From positions 390,776 to 454,775 of the forward strand of contig JADKJW010000001.1 in NCBI GenBank assembly GCA_016720835.1: a stretch of DNA of 64,000 nucleotides, in the 5' to 3' direction. The position numbers and the translations under genes were made by a program. The DNA is from Ignavibacteria bacterium (GTDB taxonomy: Bacteria > Bacteroidota > Ignavibacteria > SZUA-365). Under the pieces are notes generated by a model. It was not told where the DNA came from, did not search any database, and worked only from the letters and a program-made list of their open reading frames with translations. Of the stretch, positions 696-62,813 are shown in pieces (position 1 is the first letter of the stretch; each line of letters opens with the position of its first letter).

Positions 696-1008
696 GACGC
701 GTGCTTTTGCCTGTGGTGACGAAAGGAGACGAACTCGCCGCCGCCTTCCATGTCGAGCAGGTCTCACCGTGTTGGGCAATGCGGCTGACGGCGCGGGTTC
801 GTCTTCACAATGTCGCGTACAGGCTCCCGGATATCGTTACACAAATCCGGGAATAGCTTACAGCATTCACACACCGCACGGACACGACCATGCCGGGCAT
901 TTGTTCAATTTCGGGACATGCTGAACACATCCCGGCGTCCGGAAGCGCAAACTGAACGCAGCTGCTCGCACGCAATGATCGCGCGCGCGGGCAGGATGTT
1001 CAGGGTTG

Positions 1009-1090
1009 CGGAGGGCGAGGGATTCGAACTCTCATGACCTTGCGGTCGGCGGTTTTCAAGACCGCTGCAATACCATTATGCGAGCCCTCC
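1009..1090 (-). tRNA. tRNA-Ser (anticodon UGA)
   Basis: The reverse complement gives acceptor stem GGAGGGC/GCCCTCC and anticodon stem-loop GCGGT-CTTGAAA-ACCGC (anticodon TGA, U33, A37). There is a long variable arm GACCGCAAGGTC and a TTCGAAT T-loop. No CCA is encoded. Confidence 0.75.
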
Positions 1091-2616: not shown

Positions 2617-2954
2617 TGTTGCCTCGATTCTTCGTCAATAAACGACTTCACAGGACTGCGGATTTTGTGCGCTTCAGAAACCGGAGGGATTTCCATCGCC
2701 TTCGCACTCAATTCCACCGCTCGTTTCCATCGTTTCGCCATGATCCACCGCATCCGTTATCAACCGCCATCCACTCCTTTATAAACGTACTTTTCCCGAG
2801 CGCGAGAGTCAAGTCCCTGGCGGACATGCACGGAGGTTCATCGGAATGCATTGTCCGGCTGCAAGCGAATGCGTCGGCGCCATCGCGAGGTGGAAATGCA
2901 AACGCGCAATCATGCCCGTTGCCGCGGATTGGCTGCACGTAGCCGCAGAAAATA

Positions 2955-25819: not shown

Positions 25820-27042
25820 TCACCTGATCAACAGGATAGTGCCCGTTTCCGTCCTGCCGTCGGCGATGAAGCGGTACACACAGACACCTGTGGGGACTGA
25901 GGGCAGCGGCGTAAATTCCACTGCATGCGCGCCGGCTTCGTATTCACCCTCGGCAAGTGTGGCGATTTCTCTTCCGAGCAGAGAATACACGCGGAGAGAC
26001 GCCCGCATTCTCGATGGGAGTGTGAACGTGAACGTGCTGCTGTGGCTGAATGGATTCGGGTAGTTCTGCGCCAGTGTGGGCGTCTCCGAGAGGACAGGCT
26101 GGGCGTCGATAAGTTCGGAGAGCGGACGGCGCCACAGCGAGGTGTAGGTACCTGCGAAAATATACTGAGGCGTAATGGCAATCGCGCGAATCGTGTTCGT
26201 TGGGATGTTGTCTGTAATGTTTTTCCAATTCCTTCCCAAGTCTGTGGAGAGGAAGAGACCACTGTGATAGGTACCGGCAAAGAGGTTGGAACCTGCCACG
26301 GCCAGGCAACCGATGAGATTGTCTGTGATGCCGTTGGAAGCGGCTTCCCAAGAGGTGTCGGTTTCGGACAACATGTACACCGCGTCACCAGTGCTGGCAA
26401 AAACACGGCCGGCGCACGATGCGAGTGCCGTCATGACTTGTGCAGATCCTTCCAGCCCGGAAGGAATGGACTTCCAACTCCTGCCGGAATCGAGCGAACG
26501 GTATACGCCTTCACCTTGGGTACCCAGGTATATTTCGATACTCGTACTGAGAATAGAATAGTAATCCATGTATACGGCTGAGCGCAATATCCCTGAGTCG
26601 GCACGTACCCACGTGATACCGAAATCGGGTGACCGCCAGACGCCCTTGCGATGTGTGCCCGCCACCATCCCCCAGGAATCCACCAACAGGCAACTTGTTT
26701 GTTCTTCGAATTGCTTCGTGTCCGCTCCACCCATGTCTTGCCAAAATCACTGGTGCGGTACAGCCCATCACCCATCGCGGCATAGAGTGTATCGTGATAC
26801 AGCGCCATGGTACTGACACCTTTCTTCATTGTTGAATCAGGTGGCAGCCAGGATTGTCCCTCATCGGGAGATTGAATGATACCTTTGGCCTCCTGGTAGC
26901 CGTACACTCGGGCGCCATGAGCGATTACATACGTTGTCTTGTTGCTGTCGCATAGCAGCCATTGGGCTTGCATGAGTTGTATACATGCGCAAAGAAGTAG
27001 TGTCGAAATGAAAGACGTTTTCATCGCAGAGTCGAGCTTCAC
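25820..27042 (-). pseudogene. BNR/Ycf48-like beta-propeller T9SS cargo protein, split by an apparent frameshift near 26735
   Basis: ORF 26431..27042 has the signal peptide MKTSFISTLLLCACIQLMQAQ and TSDFGKTW. ORF 25820..26734, in another frame, continues with SPDFGITW, SLDSGRSW, STDLGRNW and ends with the T9SS CTD AQNYPNPFSHSSTFTFTLPSRMRASLRVYSLLGREIATL...GVCVYRFIADGRTETGTILLIR. The second piece has no signal peptide of its own. Paralogous to 1330..2616. Confidence 0.55.
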
Positions 27043-30000
27043 TTGTGTATGATGAAAATACCCGAAGCGGCTTCAGTGCCAACGCGCAGATTATACCCGT
27101 AGACGCCTGATATGAGGCCGCCTGGCAGACGGAAAGGAATGGTATACGTGCCGGCCGATTGGTGGCCATCGACGAGTACGACGACCTCCTCGCCTAGCAT
27201 GGTATAGAGTTTCAGTGTGACGAACTCGTCGCCCTTGAGCGTAAATCGAAATGACACACTCGTAGAAGCAGGATTTGGAAATATTGCCACCTGAATCGAT
27301 GGGTCGAGGGGATGGTGTTGCGACTTCTGCTGTGCTGTGTCGAGCCACAGTTTCGGAAATATCGAGACCGATGGCCGCATCCTGTAATAGGCGGCTCGGA
27401 GTGCAAGTGCCGTGTGCATTTTCACAACGCCGTATCCGGATGCTCGCATGTCGATGATCGCCTGCTCCATTCCAGCAGTGTCGAACTCAGCCATGCAGAT
27501 GAGTTGCTGCAGCGCGATGATGCGTTTTGCGCATTCCGTGCCGGAATGCAATGAGCGTATATCCGCCACTATCAAGCGGGCAGCGTGGATGTCGCCCGCC
27601 TCGACAAATACGTTTGCCAAGGCTTCTCGAAACACTGCTTTTCGCGGCAGGTTAGTAGACACGCGTATCGCCTCTGATAAATAACTGCCAAGCCGCGTGA
27701 GATTGCTTCGCAGTGAATCGGGCTGCTTCACCCCATACGTCAGTTCTTCACGAAGGAGGTGATTTGTCAACACCGCAGTGCTCGTTTCGTCAGTGAAGGC
27801 AGAAAGCGCCTGCCCGACTACTTTATAGGATGACAGGGGATCCTGAACGCGCCGAAAGGAGGTTGCCAACTTCAAAACGCTGTCCAGAGCTTGTCGAGTA
27901 CCTGCCTGCAGTTTTAACAATCCGAAAGGGACCTGATTATTATGACGCAGCGCAACAGGCATTATGCTTCGAGCAAAGACAATCGATGTTCCGCACACCG
28001 GGTTACAGGCGGCATCCAGGGATTGATTACAGAGCGCACTGTCGCACAGGATGGTATTGAGAAAGTTCAGCCCTCCGAAGAAACGCGTTTTCTGATCAAG
28101 ATTTAACACGCCATAGGTTACTCCATTACATTCCTCCTGCGGAGTTTCACCCCAGTAATTTCCCTTCAACCAGGCGAAGGAACTATCCCCGCTGATTACT
28201 CTCGCGACATCGGGATTCGAATGACTGAACTCGTTCCAGTTCATTTCCTTGCTGTCCACAGGTGTATTGATCGTGGAGCAATCAGTAAGCACCGCCTGCG
28301 CGGAATATTCCGAGTATCCCCAGGTGCACGGCCCGTTGTTCCGGAATACGTTGTGCCCCAGCGTGTCCCCGGAATCGGGCCGCAGAATATACTGCGAGTG
28401 GTCAAAGCCGTTGATCCCGCGAAGCTCGTTCTCCGAAATGCAGTTCCGGTACAGATTCATGCCTCCGGTGTATCCCGTGCTCACACCCTGAAAGTTGTGA
28501 AATATGTTGTTCCCTGTGAGTATGCCGTCGCTCCCATTATTGGCAATCCCTGTGAACCAGCCACCGTACACGCAAGAACTGTCGATGCGGAGCCTTGAAC
28601 GAATTGGCGGGCTTGATTGCAGAAAAACTCCGTCACCGGCCTTGTCGACGGTGGAATCCCGGAAAATGACGCAATGCGAGATGCGGTTCTCGATATTCGC
28701 GCAACCGTACACCTGCAATGCGCTCCCGTGCAGTGAGGAGTCGTTCGTGTAGATGTCCGCGATTGCGCAATGATCCAGGGCGATAGAGGCATCTGTCCCA
28801 CCGATAAATATCCCTGACCATTGTTCCCTCCCACCGCCTTGCAGGAAGGATCCGCGGAAATTCGTGTATGTCGCAGACAATGAGCCGAACACGTCCATCG
28901 GCCCGCGAGTTGAATCGATCGAGCGGAACAGCATCGTTGCGGGGGTCACTTCCTCCCCCGTTACCATAACCGTTCCAGGGGCATATACGAGAAGATTCGG
29001 AATTCCGTCGATTGTACTTGCCTTCCGCACCTTCAATGAAGGCGAAGTGCCGGTTGAAACGACGATTGCCCGTAGCGAATCCGCGAAAACGAACTGTCCT
29101 GAGTCGAAAACGAGCGAGCCGTTGATATTGATCGCCCTGCCGGAATCGAATGAGAGAATCCCACCTCTCAAGAAGGTGAGCTCTTCGCCATCTGCAATCT
29201 GCAAATCCGTGTTCCAGTGAATCCGCGCTTGTTCGATGCTTCCGCTCCCGCGAAATACCCCGGCTCCCGTAACGTTCAGGAACGCGCCGCTCTCGAAGCG
29301 GATCACCGACCTGGAAGTGTCGTTGGAGAACAAACGGAACACATTCGTCGTATCGACCGAGAGAGTGTCGGTCAAGCGGAGAGTGGATCCGTGCTCTATT
29401 TCCATTTCCACGTATCGTGAGTATGTATTCCAGTTCTCGAGCGCATGCTCTCCGCTTTCCGCTTCGAGCACGACACATTGGCCGGGGACCGCCTGGCGCA
29501 GCGCCGAATCGACGGTGGGATACACGGAGGGGACGTAGAGATTCCGCAGGGCGCGAAAGGCATTCACTCTTCCCCAGCCGTATTCCCGATGCGGCAGTGT
29601 GTCCCCCATGGCGGGCAGCCGGTCAGCGCTGAGATGAAGTGTTGAACGGATTTGATGGAGCGTAAGCTCTTTATTCAATGAAAGTAATAATGCTACAACC
29701 CCGGTTACATGGGGTGCAGCTCCTGACGTACCGTCAAAATAGCCGTCATAAGCGCCGCTCATGATTGTGGTTATTACCCTTGTAGGAGCCACGACATCAA
29801 GGCCATTCCCGTAGCTGCTCCCGTTCATAAATGAAACCCAACGCGATTGAAACTGTGTCCAATCAGAAACGGCGCCTACAGAAATCACAAGCGAATCTGA
29901 AGCTGGATACTCGAGTGAGTCTTTATCACCATTTCCAGATGAAGCAACAAGAAGTATTTTATAAACACGAGAGGCCGAGTCGAGAGCTTCAGCAAGGTAC

Positions 30001-30989
30001 GGAATACCGATGGAATCGCTATAGCTAAAACTCATATTACAAATTTTAGCGCCATTGAGCGCTGCATACCGAATGCATTGGGCGGCTGATGCTGCTGAAA
30101 CACCGAGCGAATCATTTGTGACGTACTTTAATGCCATCACCTTCACTCCGGATTTATCACCCCACCCACCCGCAATTCCGGCAATACCCTTATTATTGTT
30201 AGACCGCGCAGCAAAGATACCTGCCACGCGTGTACCATGTCCTGCCGGTAAGGAGCCCGTTCCATCCTCCGGAATATTATCATTAGCGGCATAATCCCAT
30301 CCGATCAGATCGTCTATTTTCCCATTTCCATGGTTGTCAATTCCATCCAAATCTCCGCCCATCGAAACAGAATCGTAATCAGGCCTTCCATTTCCATTCC
30401 GATCCTCAAATGGATTTATCCACATGCTGTTTACAAAATCCTCATGATCGTGTCTAACGCCAATGTCAATTACCGCCACCACAATCGAACTGTCGCCGGT
30501 AGAAAAATACCACGACTGCGGCACAGCGATTGTATCCAGATTGAATTGACCATTCCAATTCAACCCGCTGCCGACATAGAGAGGATCATCCGGTGTGCCG
30601 GTGATCTGTCCCGCAATGTCGAAGCCAACAAACACATATCGTTCGGACGCGTACAAATGGCTCAGAAGCGCGAACGCGTCAACGCCCTTTCGCAACGTAA
30701 TGCAATGATAACCGCCGAACATTTCGCTTGAAACATCGTGTATTGATTTTCGGAATTCCTCCGGCCATTCAGCAATGTTTATTGAAAGCGGATTCTTCGG
30801 TTTGAGCACAACCCTATTCTCGAATATCGGGCTGTCACAGTTACCCGTACGTTGATACCATTTGCCGTTTTTATTGACATATTCGATGCCAGCAATATAT
30901 CTGGTGGTATCCTGTCCGATTGCAGGCAACGTAGACAGAATGCATGCTGCAAGCAATCCGACGAATGTACTTTTCCAAAAGGAACACAT
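27039..30989 (-). CDS. S8 subtilisin-like serine protease with right-handed beta-helix region and C-terminal T9SS sorting domain
   Basis: Signal peptide; catalytic-triad blocks VAVIDIGV..HDHEDF (Asp), GHGTRVAGIFAA (His), GTSGAAPHVTGVVALL (Ser). Later NNIFHNFQG...NLYRNCISEN beta-helix-like repeats. CTD AIFPNPASTSVSFRFTLKGDEFVTLKLYTMLGEEVVVLVDG...GVYGYNLRV. Confidence 0.85.
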   Translation of the reverse strand: MCSFWKSTFVGLLAACILSTLPAIGQDTTRYIAGIEYVNKNGKWYQRTGNCDSPIFENRVVLKPKNPLSINIAEWPEEFRKSIHDVSSEMFGGYHCITLRKGVDAFALLSHLYASERYVFVGFDIAGQITGTPDDPLYVGSGLNWNGQFNLDTIAVPQSWYFSTGDSSIVVAVIDIGVRHDHEDFVNSMWINPFEDRNGNGRPDYDSVSMGGDLDGIDNHGNGKIDDLIGWDYAANDNIPEDGTGSLPAGHGTRVAGIFAARSNNNKGIAGIAGGWGDKSGVKVMALKYVTNDSLGVSAASAAQCIRYAALNGAKICNMSFSYSDSIGIPYLAEALDSASRVYKILLVASSGNGDKDSLEYPASDSLVISVGAVSDWTQFQSRWVSFMNGSSYGNGLDVVAPTRVITTIMSGAYDGYFDGTSGAAPHVTGVVALLLSLNKELTLHQIRSTLHLSADRLPAMGDTLPHREYGWGRVNAFRALRNLYVPSVYPTVDSALRQAVPGQCVVLEAESGEHALENWNTYSRYVEMEIEHGSTLRLTDTLSVDTTNVFRLFSNDTSRSVIRFESGAFLNVTGAGVFRGSGSIEQARIHWNTDLQIADGEELTFLRGGILSFDSGRAININGSLVFDSGQFVFADSLRAIVVSTGTSPSLKVRKASTIDGIPNLLVYAPGTVMVTGEEVTPATMLFRSIDSTRGPMDVFGSLSATYTNFRGSFLQGGGREQWSGIFIGGTDASIALDHCAIADIYTNDSSLHGSALQVYGCANIENRISHCVIFRDSTVDKAGDGVFLQSSPPIRSRLRIDSSCVYGGWFTGIANNGSDGILTGNNIFHNFQGVSTGYTGGMNLYRNCISENELRGINGFDHSQYILRPDSGDTLGHNVFRNNGPCTWGYSEYSAQAVLTDCSTINTPVDSKEMNWNEFSHSNPDVARVISGDSSFAWLKGNYWGETPQEECNGVTYGVLNLDQKTRFFGGLNFLNTILCDSALCNQSLDAACNPVCGTSIVFARSIMPVALRHNNQVPFGLLKLQAGTRQALDSVLKLATSFRRVQDPLSSYKVVGQALSAFTDETSTAVLTNHLLREELTYGVKQPDSLRSNLTRLGSYLSEAIRVSTNLPRKAVFREALANVFVEAGDIHAARLIVADIRSLHSGTECAKRIIALQQLICMAEFDTAGMEQAIIDMRASGYGVVKMHTALALRAAYYRMRPSVSIFPKLWLDTAQQKSQHHPLDPSIQVAIFPNPASTSVSFRFTLKGDEFVTLKLYTMLGEEVVVLVDGHQSAGTYTIPFRLPGGLISGVYGYNLRVGTEAASGIFIIHK

Positions 30990-30990
30990 C

Positions 30991-32679
30991 TTATCCTCCT
31001 CGCTTGTTCATTCTGTAGACACCTATGGATGACCCAAGATACAGCATACCGTCGAGTGGCATAGAAAGCATGTGATTAATTATAGAACCAGTTGCAAGTG
31101 GTGTATCAATAATTCGCCAATGCAAGCCGTCATCTTCAGAAAAGAGAAAAGCGCTGCCGCCCGCCCATACATGATCGATTGAATCGGATCCATATGCAAA
31201 ACACCTTACCCATTGCTTATGGACATTTATGGTATCAGACCAGATTTTGCCGAATTCCGCACCTCTGAGAAATCCGTCACTTGTCGCGAGAAGCACTTCT
31301 CCCCGTGAATTTGGACTCAAACCGATTGCAAGCATTGCTGCAGCGCTGTTGACCGGAGGATGAGGAAGAGGGAGCGTTTTCCAGCTATGCCCCGTATCTT
31401 GAGAAAATACTATTATATCCATTTGTACTTGAGTATTTGCCGAAAATACGAAAACCGATGAATCCTGCTCACTCTGCTCAAGATTAACCCTCTGGTCTCC
31501 AACATAACCGACGTCTTGATTTATTATCCAAGTGACTTCTGGAAAACGAGTACTTGCAATACGATTCCCCGCCGCCAGCATACGGTAACCACATCTGGCA
31601 ATGCGATAGATACCCTGCTTAAGAAGATTCCCGGTAGATCCATAGCTCAGTCCGCTGTCGGCCGGCAGCCAGGGTCCATCGGGCGACGAGGAGCGATAAA
31701 TCGGAGTCAGATGCGTGTACTGCTCGCCCGTCACTGCGAGGAAAGTGCGGGCGGTGTCATCGAGAACCAGCAGATCGTGTATGTCACCGCCGTTCGGACC
31801 GGGCAACATGCTGTGCCGCCAGGCGGCGGTGTCACTGTACACGTTTTTCCAGGCGAGGCCGTAGTCGGCCGTGCAGGCGTAGAGGATGGAGTCGTGCAGC
31901 ACCAACCGCCGCACGTTCACGCCGCCGAGGCCGAGGAAGCGCCACGCGCTGCTGTCGTATACGCGGATCGTCACATCGCTGTCCCCCGCGAGCGCGTAGA
32001 ACATGTGCCGCATGGTGAAGAATCGCGGACTGGCGTCCAATGTATCCACCACGGAAAGACTCACGCGCAGTGTATCGACGCCGAACGGCAAGGGCGACGC
32101 GGCAGCAAGCGGCGGCGCAATCCCCGGCGTCGCTGTGGTCTGGGTTGCGGCCGGTGCATGGACAAGTTTGACTATCCCCGTCCGCTGCTCCGTTTGCAGA
32201 ACGGCGAAGTACAGTCCCGGCGGCACGCGGGCGCCGGTTGCGTCTCGTCCGTCCCAGGGCACGATGCGCGTCCCCGCCGGCGAGAAGCCCTCCGTCAGGA
32301 CGCGCAGCGCGCGCCCGAGGAGATCGCAGATCGCCAGGCGCACTGCGCCGGGTTGCGGCAGTGAGAAGCGCAGCGAAGTCCCGTCGGTAAATGGATTGGG
32401 GAAACCCTGCGCACGTTCGAAGTTACCGTTCGTGTGTTCCACCGCTTCCACGCCGGTGAGAAGATCGAAAAAGAAGCGCCCCGCGGCATCCGTTTTTGTC
32501 GCGAGAGTGCGCGCTGGCGCGCCTTCGACGCGGAGTTGCATGATCGCGTTGGCCACGGGAACGCTGTCCATCGCCAGTACCGTCCCGCTGAAACGGTATT
32601 GCGCCCCGGCGCGTGGAACGGCGCAAAGCAGCGCCAGCGCAAGGCATGCCGAGAGGACCGTTCCCTTTTTCGCTCGCAT
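30991..32679 (-). CDS. secreted beta-propeller (BNR/Ycf48-like) protein with N-terminal carboxypeptidase-regulatory-like and internal FlgD-Ig/T9SS-CTD-like domain
   Basis: Signal peptide MRAKKGTVLSACLALALLCAVPRAGAQ. YRFSGTVLAMDSVPVANAIMQL is followed by GFPNPFTDGTSLRFSLPQPGAVRLAICDLLGRALRVL...VPWDGRDATGARVPPGLYFAVLQ. This is a CTD-type motif set, but it sits at residues about 90-170 rather than at the C-terminus. Propeller-like repeats follow (QDTGHSWK, EDDGLHWR). Confidence 0.75.
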   Translation of the reverse strand: MRAKKGTVLSACLALALLCAVPRAGAQYRFSGTVLAMDSVPVANAIMQLRVEGAPARTLATKTDAAGRFFFDLLTGVEAVEHTNGNFERAQGFPNPFTDGTSLRFSLPQPGAVRLAICDLLGRALRVLTEGFSPAGTRIVPWDGRDATGARVPPGLYFAVLQTEQRTGIVKLVHAPAATQTTATPGIAPPLAAASPLPFGVDTLRVSLSVVDTLDASPRFFTMRHMFYALAGDSDVTIRVYDSSAWRFLGLGGVNVRRLVLHDSILYACTADYGLAWKNVYSDTAAWRHSMLPGPNGGDIHDLLVLDDTARTFLAVTGEQYTHLTPIYRSSSPDGPWLPADSGLSYGSTGNLLKQGIYRIARCGYRMLAAGNRIASTRFPEVTWIINQDVGYVGDQRVNLEQSEQDSSVFVFSANTQVQMDIIVFSQDTGHSWKTLPLPHPPVNSAAAMLAIGLSPNSRGEVLLATSDGFLRGAEFGKIWSDTINVHKQWVRCFAYGSDSIDHVWAGGSAFLFSEDDGLHWRIIDTPLATGSIINHMLSMPLDGMLYLGSSIGVYRMNKRGG

Positions 32680-32742
32680 TTCATACTCCTGTCATTGTTG
32701 TGTACGGGGAAGCTACGTTGGGTCGGACCGATTGTCAACGAT

Positions 32743-33162
32743 TCAGACAATAAGGTTCTTTGCTTCGTCTACGCACCCCACCTGCGTCCGCCATCCGACT
32801 GCGCCTCGCTGCGGTGTGAGTGAGCAGAATGCGTAGATGAACGGTTTCGCGCGGTCGTGGAGGATGCACTGGATGCGCATCCACGTCTTTGGCGTGACGG
32901 CGTTCCAGATGCGCCCCGCGTCTGCGGACCGCTGCAGATCGTACCAGTCGGCGCCGAGCTCGCCGCGAAGGAGCATCCGGGAGTGCGCGCCATACGCGGC
33001 GCGCAGTACGGGGATATAGACTCCGGGCGGGACGGTCCGCCCGATCTCATCACGCCCGTCCCAGACGGTCCGCACCTCGATGCGGTGCTGCGAGTACAGC
33101 ATGCCCGGAAAAAGCAACACGAGCGTCCATACACGACCCAGCATCGCGAACATTCCATTCAT
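32743..33162 (-). CDS. hypothetical small protein containing a FlgD-Ig/CTD-like fragment
   Basis: Signal-like N-terminus MNGMFAMLGRVWTLVLLFPGMLYSQ, then IEVRTVWDGRDEIGRTVPPGVYIPVL. This closely resembles VPWDGRDATGARVPPGLYFAVL in the adjacent gene. Confidence 0.35.
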   Translation of the reverse strand: MNGMFAMLGRVWTLVLLFPGMLYSQHRIEVRTVWDGRDEIGRTVPPGVYIPVLRAAYGAHSRMLLRGELGADWYDLQRSADAGRIWNAVTPKTWMRIQCILHDRAKPFIYAFCSLTPQRGAVGWRTQVGCVDEAKNLIV

Positions 33163-33358
33163 CTCTCATCCCACCCACTGTGATGAGCCGTGAGATTACG
33201 CATTTCCTCGGGCAAGATCAATTCCGCCTTACCGATGGCGTTTCCTTCCGCATTGTTTCCCGTACGCCGGGTCGGTAATATTGCAGGATTGACCGCACTG
33301 CGTCCTCCTTGAACCGTGCTCAAACGGACGCGCCACTCTTCGTTCCGGAGATTCTCCC

Positions 33359-36070
33359 ATGCCCAGTTTCGCGACACGCACCTCCCTCCTCCTCATCGTC
33401 CTCTCGCTCCTCGCGGCCGACGCCATAGCGCAGGATGCGCAACGAGACCATTTCCGCAAGCAGGAAATGCAACGCGCCGGCAGTCTCGCCAAGCGCCAGG
33501 CGCGCACGCTCGCGGGCGCCGCAGATTACGACGTGATCTCCTACCGTCTCACGCTCGCGATGCCCATGCTCGAGAACGGCACCTTCGGCGGGAACGTGGT
33601 CATGCGGATGAAGAGCACGGTGGACGGCCTCTCGAACGTGGTCGTGAACGCCGGCGCGAATCTGCGCGTCGACAGCGTGACGTCGGAAGGCGCGAAGCTG
33701 CTCTTCACCCATGTCGGCGACACGCTGAAGGCCACGCTCGCGTCGCCCGCTTCGAAGGGCGCCGCGCGGGAAATCACCATGTATTACAGCGCCCCGTACA
33801 CCGGCAGCGCCATCGCCGCCAAGCCCGTGACGAACGTCCCGCTCAACGTCCCCACACTCATGATCGCCTCGCAGTCGGAGCCTTACGACGCGCGCAACTG
33901 GTGGCCCTGCAAGGACGATCCGGCGGACAAGGCCGACACGGTCGATCTCATCTGCACCACGGACTCCTCGCTCTTCTGCGTCAGCAACGGCAGCCTCGTC
34001 TCCGACGTGAAACATGCCGACGGCACGCGCACCATTCACTGGCGGTCGACGTATCCGATCGCGACCTACCTCGTCTCCGTCGCGCTCGCGCAGTTCTCGT
34101 CGACGGAAACCACCTTCACGCACGGTGGAAAAACCATGCCGGTAAACAACTGGTGGTACTCGATGCAGGCGGCGCAGATGCAGCCCAGCGCCACGGCAAT
34201 GATGGAGGGATTGCAGTTTTTCTCGGATCGCTTCATCACGTACCCGTTCATCAACGAGAAATACAGCATGGCCGAATACGGGGCCTTCGGCGGCGCGATG
34301 GAACACCAGACCTGCACGTCGATGGGCTTCTACGGCGTCGGCGTCACCATCCACGAACTGGCCCACCAGTGGTTCGGCGACAAGGTCACCTGCGCAAACT
34401 TCGAGCACATCTGGCTGAACGAGGGCTGGGCCACCTACTGCGAGGCCCTGTTCGAGGAATCGAAAGGCGGCCTCGAAGCGCTGAAAAACAACATGGCCGG
34501 CAACGCGTACTTCGGCCCCGGCACGATTTACGTGTACGACGCGCTCGACAAGAACATGGGACAGATCTTCAGCGGCGACCTCAGTTACAACAAGGCGTCG
34601 TGGGTGGTGCACATGCTGCGTCACGTGGTGGGCGACAGGAATTTCTTCCCCGCGGTGAACACGTATCTCGGCTCGGACGCGCGCGAGAATTGCCGCAGCG
34701 TCACGACCCAGGAATTCCAGGGCTTCCTCGAGCGCGAGAGCGGCATGAACCTGACCCAGTTCTTCAAACAGTGGATATACGGCGACTACTTCCCGACGTA
34801 TCGTCTCGCCTGGACATCTTCGCCTTCGGGCGGCGTCACGAATGTGACCGTGACCATCGATCAGCTGAATACTCCGACGCGTCAGGTCTTTCACATGCCG
34901 ATCGACCTCACCTTCTCGCTGCCCGGCGGCGACACCACCGTCGTCGTGCATGACTCGCTCGCGACGCAGGTCTTCACCTTCGCATTCTCGGAGAAGCCGA
35001 CCACCGTGCGCCTCGACAAGGACAACTGGATCCTGAAGCGGGTGGTGCAGCCCATCAGCAACCCGACCTTCGACAAGGGCATCCTCCTCGTCAACGGCGT
35101 CGACTGGGACACGTACGCGACGGATCCGCTGAAGCAGTGCTACGAGGACTCCGTGTTCACCGGCGACAAACCCTACACGTTCTGGGATCTCTTCCCGAAT
35201 CCCGGAAGCGGCTATCCGCGCAACATCACCGCTCCCGCGGGCATCGGCGCCGTGCCGCCCGAGGAACTCGGCAAGTACTGCACCGTCGTGTGGGTGGGCA
35301 ACGCGTATGGCGGCGACGAGGCCGTCTGGCAGAACTCGAACATCTGGGAATACCTGAAGGCGGGCGGCAACGTCATCCTGCTGACGCGCCAGGGCAGATT
35401 GTTCATCACCGCCGAACTCGTGAACTTCACGGGTCTCACCTGGTCCACCGGACAGCAGCCGCCGCTCGAGGAATGCAAGGCCGAGCAGACCTGGCTGATG
35501 GACCTGGCCTTCACCGGAGAACAGAGCCTCGTGCACGCCTTCCAGCCCGCGCTCTCAAGATCGGAGAATGAGATCCTCTTCTCCGACAGCAAGGCCTTTG
35601 CGTCGAAGCAGGCGCTCGGCCTCTGGGCGAAACCGATGAGCGTCGGCGGCAAGCAGACGGGGCAGATGGTCTATATCGGCGTGCGGCCGTACCGCGTCTC
35701 CATGTCGCTGCTCAAGCCGGACATGCAGACGATACTCGACCGCATGCCCTGTGTGCCGCTCGTCAACGGCACGGATGCTGCCGGTCTGCCCCAGGGTCTC
35801 GCGCTCGCGCAGAACTATCCGAATCCGGTCACTCCCGCGAACAGCACGACAGCGATCGACTTCACGGTTCCCGGATCGTCACAGATGCAGGTCACGCTCG
35901 CCGTGTTCGACGCCCTCGGCCGCCGCGTCGCGCTGCTCGTCGATGCCGCGCTCGTGCCAGGTTCGCACCACGCATCTCTCGATACGCGCCCGCTCAGTGC
36001 CGGCGTCTACACCATCAGGCTCAGCGCGGGCGGAAGCGATGCGGTGCGAACGATGACGGTGGTGAAATAA
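33359..36070 (+). CDS. M1-family aminopeptidase (aminopeptidase N-like) with C-terminal T9SS sorting domain
   Basis: Signal peptide. GAMEHQT...HELAHQWFGDKVTCANFEHIWLNEGWATY (GxMEN-like and HExxH-x18-E motifs). CTD AQNYPNPVTPANSTTAIDFTVPGSSQMQVTLAVFDALGRRVALLVD...GVYTIRLSAG. Confidence 0.88.
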   Translation: MPSFATRTSLLLIVLSLLAADAIAQDAQRDHFRKQEMQRAGSLAKRQARTLAGAADYDVISYRLTLAMPMLENGTFGGNVVMRMKSTVDGLSNVVVNAGANLRVDSVTSEGAKLLFTHVGDTLKATLASPASKGAAREITMYYSAPYTGSAIAAKPVTNVPLNVPTLMIASQSEPYDARNWWPCKDDPADKADTVDLICTTDSSLFCVSNGSLVSDVKHADGTRTIHWRSTYPIATYLVSVALAQFSSTETTFTHGGKTMPVNNWWYSMQAAQMQPSATAMMEGLQFFSDRFITYPFINEKYSMAEYGAFGGAMEHQTCTSMGFYGVGVTIHELAHQWFGDKVTCANFEHIWLNEGWATYCEALFEESKGGLEALKNNMAGNAYFGPGTIYVYDALDKNMGQIFSGDLSYNKASWVVHMLRHVVGDRNFFPAVNTYLGSDARENCRSVTTQEFQGFLERESGMNLTQFFKQWIYGDYFPTYRLAWTSSPSGGVTNVTVTIDQLNTPTRQVFHMPIDLTFSLPGGDTTVVVHDSLATQVFTFAFSEKPTTVRLDKDNWILKRVVQPISNPTFDKGILLVNGVDWDTYATDPLKQCYEDSVFTGDKPYTFWDLFPNPGSGYPRNITAPAGIGAVPPEELGKYCTVVWVGNAYGGDEAVWQNSNIWEYLKAGGNVILLTRQGRLFITAELVNFTGLTWSTGQQPPLEECKAEQTWLMDLAFTGEQSLVHAFQPALSRSENEILFSDSKAFASKQALGLWAKPMSVGGKQTGQMVYIGVRPYRVSMSLLKPDMQTILDRMPCVPLVNGTDAAGLPQGLALAQNYPNPVTPANSTTAIDFTVPGSSQMQVTLAVFDALGRRVALLVDAALVPGSHHASLDTRPLSAGVYTIRLSAGGSDAVRTMTVVK

Positions 36071-56148: not shown

Positions 56149-56162
56149 CAGGAGGAAACACC

Positions 56163-57272
56163 ATGAAACGCACACATTTCTTTCTCGTCGCTTTCGCCGT
56201 TTCCTTCTTCTTCGCGATTCCGCACGGTATCGCCCAGGAATTGCGCGGCGTGATGCTCGGCCTCACGGTCTCAAACTTCAACAACCGCAGCCAGAATCTT
56301 TCGATCGGCATTATCGAAGGCGCGTCAAAGGGCATCGATCAGCAGCTCGGAGAACTGGAGCTTCCCCCGTTTCCTCCGCAGGAGATCTTTGACGCGCGCA
56401 TCGCGAGCACGCCCGGAATGTCCTCGCTCGGCACGGGTTCGCTCTCGGACTATCGCCCGGCGAGCCCGTCGACCACCTCATACACCGAGACCTACACCGT
56501 CGCGTACCAGGGAGGCCTGGGCGCGACGAAGGTCAAGCTCGAATGGCAGTTTCCGCTCCCCGGACGCGTGACGAAACTCACCGTCGACGGCACGGATGTG
56601 ACGGCCCTGGCGTCCATCGATATTCCGTTTCCGGGGGGACAGGCGACGGTCGTCGTGACGTACAATTACGCCCCGCTCTCGTTCACAGCGCTTCCGACGT
56701 CGCTCTCCTTCGATGCGAACAACCGCGATGCGCTTCCCTCGAAGCCGCTCGAGATCATCCCCCAGGGCGACAGTCAGGCACAGTGGATGATCAGCTCCGA
56801 TGCCGACTGGCTCAGCCTCGATGCGGGATCGGGCGAAGGCAGACAGACGATCACCGTGGAGGTCAGAACCGGGATCATCCCGACAGGAGTGTACACGGGC
56901 ATCATCACCGTGCGCTCGCTCTTCGATCCGGCCTTCCTCGACATTCCGGTCACGCTGAACTACACGCTCGGCGCGAACGGGGCGCCGCTTCCGGAGGGCA
57001 TGGCGTTGACGCAGAATTTCCCGAATCCCGCTTCGGGGAGCACCGCGATCAGCGTCTCGCTCGGCGTGCAGGCCGCCGTCTCGTCCCCTCCAATCCTGAA
57101 GGTGACCGACATGGCCGGCCGCGTCGTCCTCGACCTCTCCTCCCGGCTGCGCCGTGATCCGGGGCCGCAGACGCTGGCGGTGGACATCGCGTTCCTGCCC
57201 GCGGGTTCATATACGTACACGCTCAGCGGCGCGGGGTATGAAGTCTCGCGCAGCATGATCGTGGTGAAATAA
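56163..57272 (+). CDS. secreted BACON-domain protein with C-terminal T9SS sorting domain
   Basis: Signal peptide MKRTHFFLVAFAVSFFFAIPHGIAQ. BACON-like PTSLSFDANNRDALPSKPLEIIPQGDSQAQWMISSDADWLSLDAGSG. CTD TQNFPNPASGSTAISVSL...KVTDMAGRVVLDL...GSYTYTLSGAG. The start codon overlaps the upstream gene's stop region. Confidence 0.75.
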   Translation: MKRTHFFLVAFAVSFFFAIPHGIAQELRGVMLGLTVSNFNNRSQNLSIGIIEGASKGIDQQLGELELPPFPPQEIFDARIASTPGMSSLGTGSLSDYRPASPSTTSYTETYTVAYQGGLGATKVKLEWQFPLPGRVTKLTVDGTDVTALASIDIPFPGGQATVVVTYNYAPLSFTALPTSLSFDANNRDALPSKPLEIIPQGDSQAQWMISSDADWLSLDAGSGEGRQTITVEVRTGIIPTGVYTGIITVRSLFDPAFLDIPVTLNYTLGANGAPLPEGMALTQNFPNPASGSTAISVSLGVQAAVSSPPILKVTDMAGRVVLDLSSRLRRDPGPQTLAVDIAFLPAGSYTYTLSGAGYEVSRSMIVVK

Positions 57273-57352
57273 TCCTGTCATCACACGGGGATGGCGCGGT
57301 TGTCCCTTTCCGGACGGCCGCGCCCGCCTCGTTCTCAATCAGAAGGTTCTCC

Positions 57353-60202
57353 ATGAAACGCATTGTCGGCGTTCTCCTGCTCTTCATCGGATGTTTCGCG
57401 CCGCGTGACGCGAGCGCGCAATATTCAGCGGTCAACGAGGCGCTGTCGCTCACCGGTGCGGGGTATGTCTCCATCCCGTGGGCAAACGCATTCAACGGGC
57501 AGCTGAACCAGATCGGGATGTTCAGCATCGATGCCTGGGTCTATCCGAGTTCGCTCTCCGGATACATGACCGTTGTCGGCAACGACTACGGTGTCGGGTA
57601 CTGGCTCGGCGTCACTCCGACCGGCAAGATCCGTTTCTACCCGCGAGGCGGCCTGTACTACGACAGCCCGGGGTCGATCCCCAGCGGACAATGGTCGCAC
57701 ATTGCCGACTCGTTCAACGCGCGGAAGCAGACTCTCTCCTTCTACATCAACGGGGCGCTCAACGGTTCCGTCGGTGTTCCGCAGGGCGGTGTCGGAAGCG
57801 TCACCGGCGGGGATCTCCGTATCGGCGCGGATCGATCGGGCGGATCACCGGCGTACTACTGGAGCGGCATGATCGATGAAGTGCGACTCTGGACTGAGGA
57901 GATCAATTTCTCGTCGGCAGTCGGGCTGCTGTATCGCGTACCGCATGCGGTCTACAACGGACGCTACGGCAAGTACCTCGTTGCCGGCTGGCGCCTGAAC
58001 GGAAGTGAGACGGGAATCGACAATCAATTCAACGGGACTCTCACCGGCACGAGCAGCTACGCGAGCGCCCCCATGCCGCCGCATTACGCCCGCATCTGCG
58101 CGTCCTTCTCGAACCTGCAACCGCTCGCCGCCGCGGGAACCGACGATTACTTCGCGATCCCCAGTTCCTCGGGAAACGCGCTCGTCCAGAACTACACTCT
58201 CGAGTGCTGGGTGAAGCCCACGTCGACCGGCGGAAGTCCGACCTATCAGACCTTCATCTCGAAGGGATCGCAGTATGCGGGTTCGTGGTCGTACTGGGTC
58301 GGGCTCAACAAGGCGAACAGCAAGGTGCGCTTCGTCCCCAACGGCGATTTCACCGACGGTCTCGAATCGTCCACCACCATGCCGCTGAACCAATGGACGC
58401 ATGTCACCGCCCGGTATCTGGTTTCGGGCAACACGCGCACCGCGACGCTCTTCTTCAATGATGTCGTCGTCGGAACGAAATCCTATTCCAGAGACGCGAC
58501 CCCGAATCAGAACGCGGTGCTGATCGGCCGCGCGGACTATGCAGGCACGCCCGTGAACGGCTACGGATTGTCGGGCTTCCTCGACGAAGTGCGCATCTGG
58601 AACACGGCGCGCAGCAACACGGAAATCATCAACGCCTACCGCATGGAATTGACCGGTCCGGTGACGAATCTCACCTCCTCGTACCACTTCGACGGCGATG
58701 TCCTCGACGCGTCCGGAAACGGAAACAACGGCGCGCATACGCTGGCCGCATCCGCGGACGTGACCTTCAACGACGCAAGCGATCTCCCCGCCATCCCGAC
58801 CGTCCAAGTGCTGCTGCCGAACGGCGGCGAAACCTGGTTCACCGGCAGCACACGCTCGGTGCAGTGGGCTTCCAGCGGCCTGCAAAACGTGCGCATCGAG
58901 TTGTCGCGCGACGGCGGGCAGACCTATGGCGAAGTGCTCACCCCCTCCACGCCCGCGGCGACAGGCGCATTCAATTGGCTGGTGAGCGGTCCCGTGACCG
59001 CCACCGCACGCGTCCGTGTCACCACGACGACGCCGACCTCCCTCTCGGATGAAAGCGACAAGAACTTCAGTATCGAGGACCCGCCGCCGACGCTCAGCGC
59101 GACGCCGTCGTCGCTGACTTTCGCCGCGGCGCAAGGCGGAGTGCTCCCGCCATCGCAGCGCATCCGCCTCAAGAATACGGGAGGCGGGACCCTGAGCTGG
59201 AGCGCCAGTCCCGGCGCAACGGCCTGGCTCAGCCTCAACCCGACGGCGGGAACCGCGAACACGGACTCCTTCGATGTGTCCATTCTTGACTCGAACCTTC
59301 CGGAAAATTCGTATAGCGCCGTCATGACCATCACCGGAAATTTCTCGAACTCGCCGGTCACGATACCCGTCGTGTACCGCGTGACGAAGAAACTCATCTT
59401 CTCGATCTCCGGACGCGTCACGATCGGATCGACGCCGCTCGCGAATATCGTGATCCCGATATTCGGCGACGTGAACACCTCCGCAACAACGGACATCAAC
59501 GGGTACTATTCCGCCACGGGACTGCCGCAAGGCGACTATGCGCTCGCGCCTTCCAATCCCTTCTACGATTTCACTCCCGCCTCGCGCAATTACGCGCCGC
59601 TGAACAGCAATGTCACGGACGCGGACTTCAACGGACGGTCGAAGCGAGGCAGGGCGATGCTGCGGTATCGCGAAGGGTGGAACCTCATGTCGCTTCCGCT
59701 CAATCCCGACATCACCGATCTGGGGTTGCTCCTTCCGGCCGCGAAGCTGCCGGCGTATTTGTTCGATCCCGCAAAGGGGTACGTCGAAACGACGACGGTC
59801 GGTTCCAACAAGATGGTGTTCTGGGTCAACTGCTCGCGGACCGACAGCACGGAGATCAGCGGTGAACTGCTCCCCGCCGTGCAGCATTCCGTCTCCTCCT
59901 CCTACGGTGGATGGAATCTGATCGGGGCGCCGAGCGGTCCCGCCTCCGTCGCGGCGATGGAACAGTTTCCCTCCGGTCTTGCGGTCGCGATCTATGAATA
60001 CGATCCGCTGTTCGGATATCTTCCACCCATCGACGGCCAATTCCGTCCGGGCCGCGGGTACTTCCTGAAGGCGGCCGGAGACGGAAGCGTCCGTATCACG
60101 GCGGAGAGCGCCTTCGCACCGATCGTCTTCAGGCCGTCGCTGCGTTTCCCCGGTGCTGCAGTGCTGTGGGATCCGCCGCCGCCCCCGCCCCCGTCGCGAT
60201 GA
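57353..60202 (+). CDS. large secreted LamG x2 / BACON / carboxypeptidase-regulatory-like protein with unassigned tandem C-terminal module (paralog of 7957..11112)
   Basis: Signal peptide MKRIVGVLLLFIGCFAPRDASAQ. Collinear with and about half identical to 7957..11112 across the LamG blocks (IDAWVYPSSLSGYMTVVGNDY..., LECWVKPT...LDEVRIWN), PNGGETW...VQWAS, BACON (LTFAAAQGGVLPPSQRIRLKNTGGGTLSWSA) and the C-terminal GWNLMSLP...GWNLIGAPS...GYFLKA module. Confidence 0.85.
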   Translation: MKRIVGVLLLFIGCFAPRDASAQYSAVNEALSLTGAGYVSIPWANAFNGQLNQIGMFSIDAWVYPSSLSGYMTVVGNDYGVGYWLGVTPTGKIRFYPRGGLYYDSPGSIPSGQWSHIADSFNARKQTLSFYINGALNGSVGVPQGGVGSVTGGDLRIGADRSGGSPAYYWSGMIDEVRLWTEEINFSSAVGLLYRVPHAVYNGRYGKYLVAGWRLNGSETGIDNQFNGTLTGTSSYASAPMPPHYARICASFSNLQPLAAAGTDDYFAIPSSSGNALVQNYTLECWVKPTSTGGSPTYQTFISKGSQYAGSWSYWVGLNKANSKVRFVPNGDFTDGLESSTTMPLNQWTHVTARYLVSGNTRTATLFFNDVVVGTKSYSRDATPNQNAVLIGRADYAGTPVNGYGLSGFLDEVRIWNTARSNTEIINAYRMELTGPVTNLTSSYHFDGDVLDASGNGNNGAHTLAASADVTFNDASDLPAIPTVQVLLPNGGETWFTGSTRSVQWASSGLQNVRIELSRDGGQTYGEVLTPSTPAATGAFNWLVSGPVTATARVRVTTTTPTSLSDESDKNFSIEDPPPTLSATPSSLTFAAAQGGVLPPSQRIRLKNTGGGTLSWSASPGATAWLSLNPTAGTANTDSFDVSILDSNLPENSYSAVMTITGNFSNSPVTIPVVYRVTKKLIFSISGRVTIGSTPLANIVIPIFGDVNTSATTDINGYYSATGLPQGDYALAPSNPFYDFTPASRNYAPLNSNVTDADFNGRSKRGRAMLRYREGWNLMSLPLNPDITDLGLLLPAAKLPAYLFDPAKGYVETTTVGSNKMVFWVNCSRTDSTEISGELLPAVQHSVSSSYGGWNLIGAPSGPASVAAMEQFPSGLAVAIYEYDPLFGYLPPIDGQFRPGRGYFLKAAGDGSVRITAESAFAPIVFRPSLRFPGAAVLWDPPPPPPPSR

Positions 60203-62341: not shown

Positions 62342-62813
62342 TGTCCGGTGTGGGAGTGGACGTCGGGGATCGCGGATCGCGGCCTTCCGGCCAATCGATC
62401 ACTTCCAACCGGACGCCGGTAATGCCCGCGCGAAGCATCCCGATCTGTGATGCCGCCGCGTAGCTCAAATCGACGACACGGCTTCCACGGTTCGGCCCAC
62501 GATCGTTGACGCGGACAACGACGTCCCGCCCCGTGGCGAGCGAGGTGACGCGCAACCATGTGCCGAAGGGGTACCGGGGATGCGCGGCGGTCAACCGTCT
62601 GCGATCATACCGCTCGCCATTGGCGGTTTTCCGGCCCTGGAATTTGTTGCTGTAATAGGAGGCGAGTCCTTCGCTGGTTTCATAGACGCGTACCGACGAA
62701 TCAGTCAGCACGGGATTCCGCTCCGTCGACTTCGTCGACGCGCATCCGTGCAATGCGACAGCCAGCGGGAGTCCGAGGGCTGCGGCCACGCCGTATGCGA
62801 GAATTGCGCGCAT
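62313..62813 (-). CDS. rlpA: septal ring lytic transglycosylase RlpA-family lipoprotein (DPBB domain)
   Basis: MRAILAYGVAAALGLPLAVALHGCAS lipobox. GLASYYSNKFQGRKTANGERYDRRRLTAAHPRYPFGTWLRVTSLATGRDVVVRVNDRGP. The start overlaps the manC stop. Confidence 0.8.
   Translation of the reverse strand: MRAILAYGVAAALGLPLAVALHGCASTKSTERNPVLTDSSVRVYETSEGLASYYSNKFQGRKTANGERYDRRRLTAAHPRYPFGTWLRVTSLATGRDVVVRVNDRGPNRGSRVVDLSYAAASQIGMLRAGITGVRLEVIDWPEGRDPRSPTSTPTPDNAHDGDDGR

Follow-up and report, generated by a model that had tools for sequence, protein, structure and literature searches.

A T9SS type-A CTD in an N-proximal position within a conserved protein of an Ignavibacteria bacterium

Genes and domains at the locus

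Within the 64,000-nt stretch of Ignavibacteria bacterium DNA analyzed here (the window), a 562-aa gene on the (−) strand is preceded by a 139-aa ORF and followed by an S8 peptidase gene and a frameshifted BNR propeller gene (Table 1). Both ORFs on which a sequence-only reading of this DNA had focused, those of 562 and 139 aa, exist with the peptides it quoted. The first ~480 codons of the S8 peptidase gene are part of the GC-poor block to which the 3′ half of the 562-aa gene also belongs, and on another contig an intact gene of 388 aa, weakly matching BNR/Sortilin Pfam profiles, occupies the position of the frameshifted BNR gene. The window contains five canonical CTD proteins, the S8 and M1 peptidases among them, which suggests that the host has a T9SS. 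We found that the 562-aa gene, the 139-aa ORF and the S8 peptidase gene constitute a cluster, of which this genome has two copies. The second (MBL0176043-47) is fragmented and was located on a contig of 222 kb in the same MAG; the genes flanking the cluster have no copy there.

Table 1. Coordinates of the features in the window (residue numbers refer to the 562-aa protein)
Feature	Position	Strand	Basis or remark
BNR propeller gene, frameshifted, with canonical C-terminal CTD	25820..27042	−	two overlapping ORFs
S8 peptidase gene, with canonical C-terminal CTD	27039..30989	−	start codon 1 nt after the stop of the 562-aa gene
562-aa gene	30991..32679	−	MBL0173972.1; NCBI name 'T9SS type A sorting domain-containing protein'
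Residues 346-562, variable, GC-poor half of the putative propeller	30991..31644	−	
Residues 201-345, first putative propeller blades and possible second half of CarboxypepD_reg	31645..32079	−	GC-rich
Residues 176-200, Pro/Ala/Thr-rich linker	32080..32154	−	no secondary structure in the AF2 model
Residues 91-175, complete type-A CTD/FlgD-Ig beta-sandwich	32155..32409	−	profiles, AF2 and Foldseek
Residues 76-90, flexible 'TGVEAVE...' linker	32410..32454	−	pLDDT and alignment with canonical pre-CTD linkers
Residues 27-75, four-stranded CarboxypepD_reg-like half unit	32455..32601	−	PF13620 and AF2
Residues 1-26, putative signal peptide	32602..32679	−	read by eye; ...PRAGA↓QYRF, Gln at +1
Shine-Dalgarno AGGAG	32686-32690		for the 562-aa gene
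139-aa ORF	32743..33162	−	MBL0173973.1; remnant of a tandem paralogue ~243 aa long
Asp-box SADAGRIW in the tail of the 139-aa ORF	32905..32928	−	resembles the penultimate propeller blade
CTD remnant of the 139-aa ORF	32968..33075	−	CTD profile E-value 2.4e-9, profile positions 57-92 only
Junction of the in-frame 303-nt deletion	33071..33079	−	9-nt microhomology CGAGG(G/T)GCG

From its N-terminus, the 562-aa protein comprises a putative signal peptide, half a CarboxypepD_reg unit, a CTD, a linker and a putative BNR/Asp-box propeller. The signal peptide, as judged by eye, has a basic n-region, a hydrophobic core and the site AGA↓Q, with the Gln at +1 of the Q-rule for signal peptides (PMC5837995), and AF2 placed a helix at residues 6-19. 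The strands of the half unit span residues 27-33, 46-50, 58-62 and 68-74 in the AF2 model. Over residues 31-80, this unit matched CarboxypepD_reg (PF13620) at 15 bits, with the match confined to profile positions 3-52 of 82; a full-length match (82 positions, >32.3 bits) was not found in the 562-aa protein. The 'TGVE' linker resembles the pre-CTD linker of canonical cargo and has pLDDT values of <50 at residues 78-85. Asp-boxes occur at residues 330-337, 425-432 and 513-520, and the segment of residues 201-345 ends just past the Asp-box SSSPDGPW. A Phmmer search with the C-terminal half of the protein returned 515 proteins, matching as multiple repeated stretches, and the sampled matches look like BNR/Asp-box repeat proteins. 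Pfam Sortilin scored only 11.7 bits, and the full-length AF2 model (based on a 6-sequence alignment) reached a pLDDT of 29; the propeller is therefore a putative fold.

Identity, position and conservation of the internal CTD

The sequence-only reading had proposed a T9SS CTD/FlgD Ig-like domain at an internal position of the 562-aa protein, and profile and structure searches agreed with this assignment. Specifically, TIGR04183 (Por_Secre_tail) matched above its cutoff (26.7 versus 23 bits; residues 93-173), while PF13860 (FlgD_ig) scored 25.5 bits over residues 101-160, below its cutoff of 27, which the relatives P0020 (37.8 bits) and P0041 (31.0 bits) exceed. PF18962 was not reported for the 562-aa protein and is passed by the relatives P0205 and P0217 (32.4 bits; cutoff, 27). 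The hallmarks PNPF, DLLGR, WDGRD, PPGLY and K171 are all present in residues 91-175, with K171 (in GIVKLVH) aligned with the K of the KMxLL motif, i.e., the near-invariant CTD lysine; the importance of a conserved lysine near the CTD end has been reported (PMC10994853). For residues 1-200, AF2 gave a mean pLDDT of 83, with block means of ~89-98 over residues 91-175, and the predicted strands, spanning residues 91 to 174, form a seven-stranded Ig-like sandwich as in solved CTDs. The best Foldseek matches were PorZ (5m11), PorU (6za2) and FlgD, and the CTDs of NucA (8glk_D; TMt 0.64) and mirolase (8qb1; TMt 0.60) were also found; a PDB profile search returned FlgD, PorU, PorZ and the RgpB CTD. 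Identity to canonical CTDs (30-56%) falls in the same range as among canonical CTDs themselves. In comparison, the FlgD equivalog models scored only 18.9 and 20.5 bits (cutoffs, 230 and 333), and the FlgD hook-cap context is absent, there being no FlgD N-terminal region, Tudor domain or flagellar neighbors (the genes scanned encode peptidases and housekeeping functions). We conclude that residues 91-175 are a bona fide T9SS type-A CTD/FlgD-Ig domain that is not at the C-terminus.

The internal CTD is followed by 387 residues and does not occupy the extreme C-terminal location. Among its closest non-family relatives, by comparison, the domain ends ≤19 aa from the C-terminus in 15 out of 15, and placement was C-terminal in 114 of the 117 CTD matches in the collected proteins. 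Canonical matches among six-frame ORFs, taken from the window and from the loci compared, end 0-18 aa before the stop; in the protein sets they end within 25 aa of it. When the N-terminal 345 aa were searched against the genome and metagenome contigs, only distant, CTD-driven matches were obtained, all with canonical C-terminal placement, and literature searches retrieved no papers on an internal CTD or on a FlgD Ig-like domain together with T9SS.

The window, the P0001 contig and L001, which are independent assemblies, all contain an intact ORF of identical layout, and P0041 (544 aa), from another metagenome, aligned over its full length (30% identity; E-value, 9e-79) with an identical domain order. 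Over codons 1-345, the comparison with L001 gave a pN/pS of 0.17; codons 177-345 contain 16 synonymous and 4 non-synonymous differences, and the module codons (1-176, see below) just 8, of which 3 are synonymous and 5 non-synonymous. Thus, the 562-aa ORF is a genuine gene, conserved as a member of a small family.

Together, the signal peptide, the CarboxypepD_reg half unit, the 'TGVE' linker and the complete CTD form a fixed module of ~150 aa with which the family members begin, and we found this module at the head of three or more further proteins whose C-terminal domains are unrelated. In P0205 (TIGR04183, 42.9 bits at residues 99-179) it is joined to an XynC-like GH30 domain, and in P0192 to a FISUMP domain; P0217 carries it as well (TIGR04183, 44.4 bits at residues 82-162). 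P0205 is encoded within a glycoside-hydrolase cluster (L024), where a neighboring GH10 protein has a canonical CTD. None of the module carriers has a C-terminal CTD, the module was seen only on such proteins, and the half-match to PF13620 is common to every carrier. When the N-terminal half of CarboxypepD_reg was joined to the segment following the CTD, P0217 gained 7 bits with the full profile covered, P0192 gained 2 bits, and P0041 and P0205 showed no gain; the 562-aa protein gained 6 bits, but the match reached only profile position 56. Two candidates for a C-terminal arrangement of a CarboxypepD_reg half plus CTD, P0255 and P0228, were rejected, as they share only the pre-CTD linker. Since the module is shared with proteins of unrelated C-termini, the N-proximal CTD is a recurrent architecture and no local accident.

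The upstream ORF and the composition of the 562-aa gene

The sequence-only reading had regarded WDGRDEIGRTVPPGVYIPVLR, encoded by the 139-aa ORF, as a close copy of part of the neighboring CTD, which our comparisons did not bear out. At the protein level, this stretch does resemble residues 142-162 of the 562-aa protein (13 of 21 residues; pairwise BLASTP E-value, 2e-6), but its codon-aligned DNA is identical at only 41 of 63 positions (65%) and at 9 of 21 third positions, and blastn detected no similarity between the two genes. Likewise, blastn of positions 30901-33400 against the window revealed no internal DNA repeat. Unrelated canonical CTDs match the same stretch at 12-13 of 21 residues, equal to the match of the neighbor. 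Because the DNA is this divergent and unrelated CTDs are equally similar, the likeness reflects a family motif and old paralogy. Of the duplication and domain shuffling that had been suggested, shuffling is upheld by the presence of the module on unrelated proteins, whereas a recent local duplication is not.

Over the module, the tandem paralogue shows ~44% aa identity to the 562-aa protein, and the full module is present in its 243-aa forms P0020 and P0021. The sister contig L025 contains an undeleted paralogue adjoining the same M1 peptidase gene as in the window: nucleotides 2-53 and 357-3357 of L025 align with the window up to the junction, while nucleotides 54-356 (303 nt) are absent from it. 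The idea that an island border coincides with the 5′ end of the 139-aa ORF was discarded, since L025 reveals a deletion inside the gene, which is still at its original place. We conclude that an old paralogue in tandem, carrying the same module, survives as the 139-aa ORF and that a further 101 codons were lost from it in frame in this genome via a microhomology deletion; that the paralogue had probably lost most of its propeller earlier is moderately supported. The decay suspected in the sequence-only reading therefore applies to the upstream ORF but not to the 562-aa gene, with its 30%-identity homologue and low pN/pS.

By identity and composition, the 562-aa gene itself is a recombinant: its 5′ part is conserved and rich in GC, whereas its 3′ half is GC-poor and deeply strain-variable. 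Codons 1-345 are 97-100% identical to those of other alleles, in contrast to 35-43% identity between alleles over codons 346-562. In 60-nt windows, identity to L001 was 90-100% (97-100% in most) down to position ~31650 and ~48% beyond it, with the lowest values of the conserved part found near the breakpoint. GC3 was 0.77-0.92 over codons 180-300, 0.65 over codons 300-360 and 0.33-0.40 in residues 346-562; it drops from 0.92 to 0.37, and in L001 GC falls at the identical point. The break in identity and composition, at ~31598-31650, is sharp and lies inside the gene; the sequence-only reading mentioned neither this break nor the second copy of the cluster. Three alleles share this breakpoint just after a conserved Asp-box, and their 3′ halves are in frame and nearly equal in length. 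Scans for repeats, tRNAs and promoters/terminators found nothing marking island ends.

Other explanations of these features were weighed. The 139-aa ORF might be a functional small secreted protein and no remnant, as its deletion is in frame and its signal peptide, Gln at +1 and host-like GC3 (0.79) are retained; this is very unlikely, however, given that only the last two of seven CTD strands and one Asp-box blade are left, that its own database entry (P0019) is the only identical match and that sister loci hold the longer form. Programmed variation of a surface protein (a shufflon or cassette gene conversion) could supply alternative 3′ halves, in keeping with the sharp breakpoint shared by three alleles and the presence of the cluster twice in the genome. 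We consider it highly improbable, since tblastn found no silent 3′ cassette in the window, the region has no flanking inverted or direct repeats and no meaningful repeats, no recombinase occurs among the neighboring genes scanned, and the 3′ allele found in the second copy is no different one (97% aa identity); ordinary recombination replacing a strain-variable, GC-poor region fits the pattern. An extremely unlikely and already largely refuted reading takes the 562-aa ORF for an assembly chimera, a gene in decay or a fusion without function, with the CTD as the relic of a stop-less upstream mini-cargo gene. The sharp composition break within the ORF would agree with it, as would the abundant decay at the locus, where the small ORF carries a deletion, the BNR gene is frameshifted, the second copy is in fragments and an IS adjoins the gene in L001, but the intact layout in independent assemblies, the full-length homologue with identical domain order, the overall pN/pS value, the 16 synonymous to 4 non-synonymous differences over codons 177-345 and the retention of frame and nearly the same length in three deeply diverged 3′ halves argue against it.

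Possible function of the internal CTD and comparison with known systems

Removal of two C-terminal residues from RgpB causes secretion to fail (PMC5445135), and the CTD, when bound within the pore of SprA, has ~40% of its surface buried, with recognition by shape rather than conserved contacts and substrates exiting CTD-first (PMC10994853). The 562-aa protein would be exported to the periplasm by Sec. Because 387 residues follow the last CTD strand, canonical presentation to the T9SS translocon as a free, first-leaving C-terminal tag is probably impossible, and on the basis of published work (PMC5445135, PMC10994853) it is reasonable to infer that the internal CTD may be unable to serve as a sorting signal. 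Most likely, the domain would stay on the protein permanently in an Ig-like structural or docking role, like the uncleaved CTDs of PorU and PorZ, and would not be a sorting tag that is cleaved off. As a whole, the interpretation that joins a conserved family, a recurrent module, an old paralogue, a duplicated cluster, a recombinant gene and a retained non-signal domain appears rather probable.

Several observations sit less easily with a retained domain. Every hallmark of a working signal has been kept, including the pre-CTD linker and K171, the identity to canonical CTDs would also be expected of a still-functional signal, and the carrier P0205 is an XynC-like endoxylanase, an enzyme class that usually must reach the cell surface.

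The N-terminal module might instead act as a T9SS signal despite its permuted position: PorV and SprA would still recognize the CTD, and the domain attached on its C-terminal side would cross the outer membrane with it. In that case, PorU might cut within the 'TGVE' linker and so release the CTD with its passenger from the small N-terminal unit. The preserved fold motifs, linker and lysine point in this direction, as do recognition by shape (PMC10994853), the location of P0205 beside a canonical-CTD GH10 protein and the lack of a C-terminal CTD in carriers whose BNR propeller, GH30 xylanase-like and FISUMP parts are typical T9SS passengers. However, the loss of only two residues blocks RgpB export (PMC5445135), a folded 387-aa C-terminal extension would be likely to clash with CTD-first exit from a tight pocket, and literature searches found no report of a functioning internal CTD. 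A permuted signal is therefore unlikely in our judgment, and we are similarly doubtful that the module is a functional T9SS recognition/anchoring device at the N-terminal end, with the CTD perhaps lying within a split CarboxypepD_reg.

The distinction between a retained domain and a signal matters because pipelines label any TIGR04183-matching protein as T9SS type A, and secretome predictions then count such proteins as cargo. A conserved N-proximal CTD implies either false-positive cargo calls for a whole protein class or a signal tolerating a position that nobody has tested. If the N-terminal module were functional, T9SS would handle proteins with occupied C-termini, and the 'C-terminal' rule for type A would not be absolute; being short, self-contained and present on several passengers, the module is easily testable. 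The deleted paralogue, duplicated cluster and mid-gene break represent ordinary genome flux and illustrate the shuffling of T9SS cargo genes.

With canonical type-A cargo (e.g., RgpB and the S8 and M1 peptidases of the window), the 562-aa protein shares a putative Sec signal peptide, the pre-CTD linker, the seven-stranded fold and the motifs PNPF...DxxGR...WDG...GxY...K. Unlike such cargo, it has its CTD in an N-proximal position and none at the C-terminus, with the 'passenger' on the opposite side. PorU and PorZ, its best structural matches, are surface components of the T9SS with a permanent, uncleaved CTD, and PorZ likewise combines beta-propellers with a CTD; however, their CTD is C-terminal, whereas in the 562-aa protein the CTD precedes the putative propeller, and sequence homology does not extend beyond the CTD. 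The FlgD Ig-like domain (PF13860) has the same fold, detectable profile similarity and an internal position in FlgD too, but the 562-aa protein lacks the FlgD N-terminal and Tudor parts and flagellar neighbors, and its motifs place it in the T9SS subgroup. BNR/Asp-box propellers with a C-terminal CTD ('photosystem II stability/assembly factor-like') use the same two building blocks, and >500 apparent BNR/Asp-box repeat proteins match the C-terminal half of the 562-aa protein, which differs in its reversed domain order and added half CarboxypepD_reg unit. Strain-variable ('flexible') genomic islands are replaced by recombination, encode GC-poor surface or secreted proteins and show an abrupt loss of identity between close relatives. 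The locus resembles them in its GC-poor surface/secreted content, abrupt identity loss and different downstream gene content but differs in that one boundary lies inside a gene with the frame kept and the cluster occurs twice in the genome.

Identity, placement and recurrence of the internal domain

Both ORFs and the peptides quoted from them in the sequence-only reading are present in the window, and its assignment of the internal segment of the 562-aa predicted propeller protein (30991..32679, −) to the T9SS CTD/FlgD-Ig-like family held up. Among the curated models, TIGR04183 matched residues 93–173 above its cutoff (26.7 bits versus 23), PF13860 (FlgD_ig) reached 25.5 bits against a cutoff of 27, and CarboxypepD_reg matched partially (residues 31–80, profile positions 3–52 of 82). 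An AF2 model of residues 1–200, based on an alignment of 54 sequences, had a mean pLDDT of 83 and predicted four consecutive elements (see table). Foldseek ranked PorZ (5m11), PorU (6za2), and FlgD at the top and also matched the translocon-bound NucA CTD (8glk_D, TMt 0.64) and the mirolase CTD (8qb1, TMt 0.60), and a profile search of PDB sequences returned FlgD, PorU, PorZ, and the RgpB CTD. The profile and structure matches are to the CTD/FlgD group and not to an unrelated Ig family; sequence, predicted fold, and relatives agree in identifying a real CTD.

The N-proximal position of this domain is very unusual. C-terminal placement was found for 114 of the 117 CTD hits among the collected proteins, and in all 15 of the nearest relatives from outside the family, the domain lies ≤19 residues from the C-terminus. 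In six-frame ORFs from the window and the fetched loci, every canonical CTD hit (five of them in the window itself) ends ≤18 residues before the stop.

The same layout recurs elsewhere. P0041, a 544-aa protein from a Logan contig, can be aligned end to end with the 562-aa protein (30% identity, E 9e-79) and has the same order of signal peptide, half CarboxypepD_reg unit, CTD, linker, and propeller. Three more proteins (P0205, P0217, and P0192) begin with the module and continue with unrelated domains, and none of the three has a C-terminal CTD. The P0205 gene belongs to a cluster of glycoside-hydrolase genes and neighbours one for a GH10 protein that has a canonical CTD. The "TGVE.." linker that precedes the module CTD is common to canonical cargo. 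Compared with the allele on contig L001, codons 1–345 showed a pN/pS of 0.17, with 16 synonymous and 4 non-synonymous differences in codons 177–345 and just 3 and 5, respectively, within the module. The N-proximal CTD is a conserved architecture and not a local accident.

Features of the locus and of related sequences
Feature	Sequence	Position	Details
Signal-peptide helix	562-aa protein	N-terminus	AF2
Four-stranded unit	562-aa protein	27–74	AF2
Disordered linker	562-aa protein	78–85	AF2
Beta-sandwich	562-aa protein	91–174	AF2, block-mean pLDDT ~89–98
Module CTD	P0205	99–179	TIGR04183, 42.9 bits; then XynC-like GH30 domain
Module CTD	P0217	82–162	TIGR04183, 44.4 bits; then unknown domain
Module	P0192		Then FISUMP domain
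139-aa ORF	Window	32743..33162 (−)	Upstream neighbour
Deletion junction	Window	33071–33079	Within microhomology CGAGG(G/T)GCG; comparison with L025
Low-GC3 block	Window	29550–31650	3′ half of 562-aa gene and first ~480 codons of S8 gene (catalytic domain); GC3 0.33–0.57
Frameshifted gene	Window	25820–27042 (−)	Two overlapping ORFs, 203 and 304 aa
Ycf48/PSII_BNR-like propeller gene	Window	1330–2634 (−)	PF14870, 110 bits; GC-poor, GC3 0.50
tRNA-Ser	Window	1008–1090	Sole tRNA in window
Canonical CTD-coding segment	Window	56991–57269 (+)	Parent gene within 55749–57269
Laminin_G_3/BACON gene	Window	57242..60202	986 aa; begins about where the CTD segment ends (57269)
Weak VimE match	Window	60839–62398 (−)	112 bits, cutoff 440
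MBL0176047	222-kb contig		243 aa
MBL0176046 and MBL0176045	222-kb contig		384 and 200 aa; frameshifted version of 562-aa gene
MBL0176044/43	222-kb contig		S8 fragments
Tandem motif	L001	225–310	Two copies of ~36 nt, GC rich
ISL3-family transposase	L001	2194–3450	17 nt past stop of 562-aa gene allele
Orphan canonical CTD	L001	3650–3891	After transposase
P0041 gene	L022	1051–2685	GC 0.58 (5′ end) to 0.46 (3′ end); contig 70% GC

History of the upstream ORF and the second cluster

The 139-aa ORF, identical to P0019 (NCBI MBL0173973, Ignavibacteria MAG), contains WDGRDEIGRTVPPGVYIPVLR, which matches residues 142–162 of the 562-aa protein at 13 of 21 positions; its hit to a custom-built CTD profile (E 2.4e-9) is confined to the last two strands. 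The claim that this segment is a close copy of part of the neighbouring CTD did not hold: 41 of 63 nt are identical, third codon positions agree in 9 of 21 cases, and unrelated CTDs match the segment equally well, which rules out recent copying of this stretch. Our search recovered 243-aa longer forms (P0020 and P0021), in which a signal peptide and a half CarboxypepD_reg unit precede a complete CTD. They end in a 75-aa tail that contains a single Asp-box and bears a weak likeness to the penultimate propeller blade (z 3.6–5.2). Because the modules of P0020 and the 562-aa protein are only ~44% identical, the two genes are old tandem paralogues.

Contig L025, from another metagenome, is decisive for the history of the small ORF: it shares the M1 peptidase gene with the window (92% DNA identity) and, at the same position, has the gene in undeleted form, its signal peptide unchanged (MKGMFAMLGRVW...); of this gene, 303 nt (101 codons, in frame) are absent from the window. 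Upstream of the conserved block, L001 has the tandem motif (CCCCGAAGGCGAAG(C/T)CGAGGGG.CGGA.TGAAGAGG) where the window has the small ORF.

The same MAG holds, on a 222-kb contig outside the window, a second 243-aa/562-aa/S8 cluster (MBL0176043–MBL0176047), with 96–99% identity to the window proteins in a protein-level comparison. Its frameshifts may reflect real decay or long-read assembly errors. The flanking M1 peptidase and 230-aa genes have no copy on this contig. The small ORF and the dynamics of the island are ordinary.

Mosaic structure of the 562-aa gene and its surroundings

Inside the 562-aa ORF, GC content falls from 0.64–0.70 to ~0.45 near 31600–31650, and GC3 drops from 0.92 to 0.37. 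The alleles P0001 and P0002 are near-identical to the window protein over residues 1–345 and then only 35–43% identical; all three proteins are 559–562 aa long and share the same aligned end position. In 60-nt windows, L001 shows 90–100% DNA identity down to ~31650 (most windows 97–100%, with a few at 90–93% in the last ~250 nt) and ~48% beyond this point, with the same GC drop; the break lies just after the Asp-box SSSPDGPW. The S8 peptidase gene starts 1 nt beyond the stop of the 562-aa gene. The GC3 of the low-GC3 block, compared with 0.53–0.80 (intermediate) in the remaining S8 gene and 0.8–0.9 in host genes, suggests a separate origin. Since core flanking genes of related strains are 92–99% identical to those of the window (compared as DNA for L025 and as protein for the other strains), vertical inheritance seems to account for the conserved half and replacement by recombination for the 3′ half. 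We found no signs of programmed switching at the locus, having scanned the window for cassettes and repeats and the neighbouring genes for a recombinase.

The P0041 gene also declines in GC, so the 5′-to-3′ decrease recurs in this gene family. The orphan CTD that follows the transposase on L001 looks as if most of a downstream cargo gene had been lost. The overlapping ORFs at 25820–27042 jointly code for a signal peptide and a BNR propeller followed by a canonical CTD and therefore represent one frameshifted gene; at the corresponding position between the same flanking genes, a JGI contig carries an intact 388-aa gene whose Pfam hits to BNR/Sortilin are faint. Two 224-aa S8 variants from other metagenomes (P0175 and P0178; ENA, Logan), in which the signal peptide is fused straight to ~residue 260 and the protein ends early, likewise derive from the neighbouring peptidase gene by deletion. 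The Ycf48/PSII_BNR-like gene, which the tRNA adjoins, might be another propeller gene that was acquired. VimE is a deacetylase in the pathway for the linking sugar of T9SS cargo attachment in Porphyromonas, and the gene at 60839–62398 is probably just a family relative.

Possible role of the internal CTD

The analysis shows what the domain is, where it lies and that it recurs, as well as the paralogy, the deletion, the mosaic structure, and the duplication; the export route of the protein and the function of its CTD are inferred. The 562-aa protein is probably exported through Sec; its putative signal peptide is followed by Gln at position +1, in line with the Q-rule for Bacteroidetes (PMC5837995). 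RgpB lacking two C-terminal residues is not exported (PMC5445135), and the CTD sits in a tight SprA-PorV pocket with ~40% of its surface buried and leaves first (PMC10994853). Because of these properties, the internal CTD would probably not be usable in the canonical way, which favours an Ig-like domain that is retained for a structural or docking role. The main rival, a working T9SS signal in a permuted position, draws on the fully kept signal hallmarks and on the type of passenger to which the module is attached; given the end deletion and the CTD-first pocket, we consider it unlikely. One idea for the origin of the arrangement is insertion of the CTD into a split CarboxypepD_reg domain, for which a splice test gave mixed support.

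Our literature search turned up no publication that deals with internal T9SS CTDs; what is new here is a known domain in a conserved, previously unreported placement. For its role, a retained structural or docking domain is the reading we prefer, with middling confidence, and the likeness we propose is to PorU and PorZ, which have a retained CTD.
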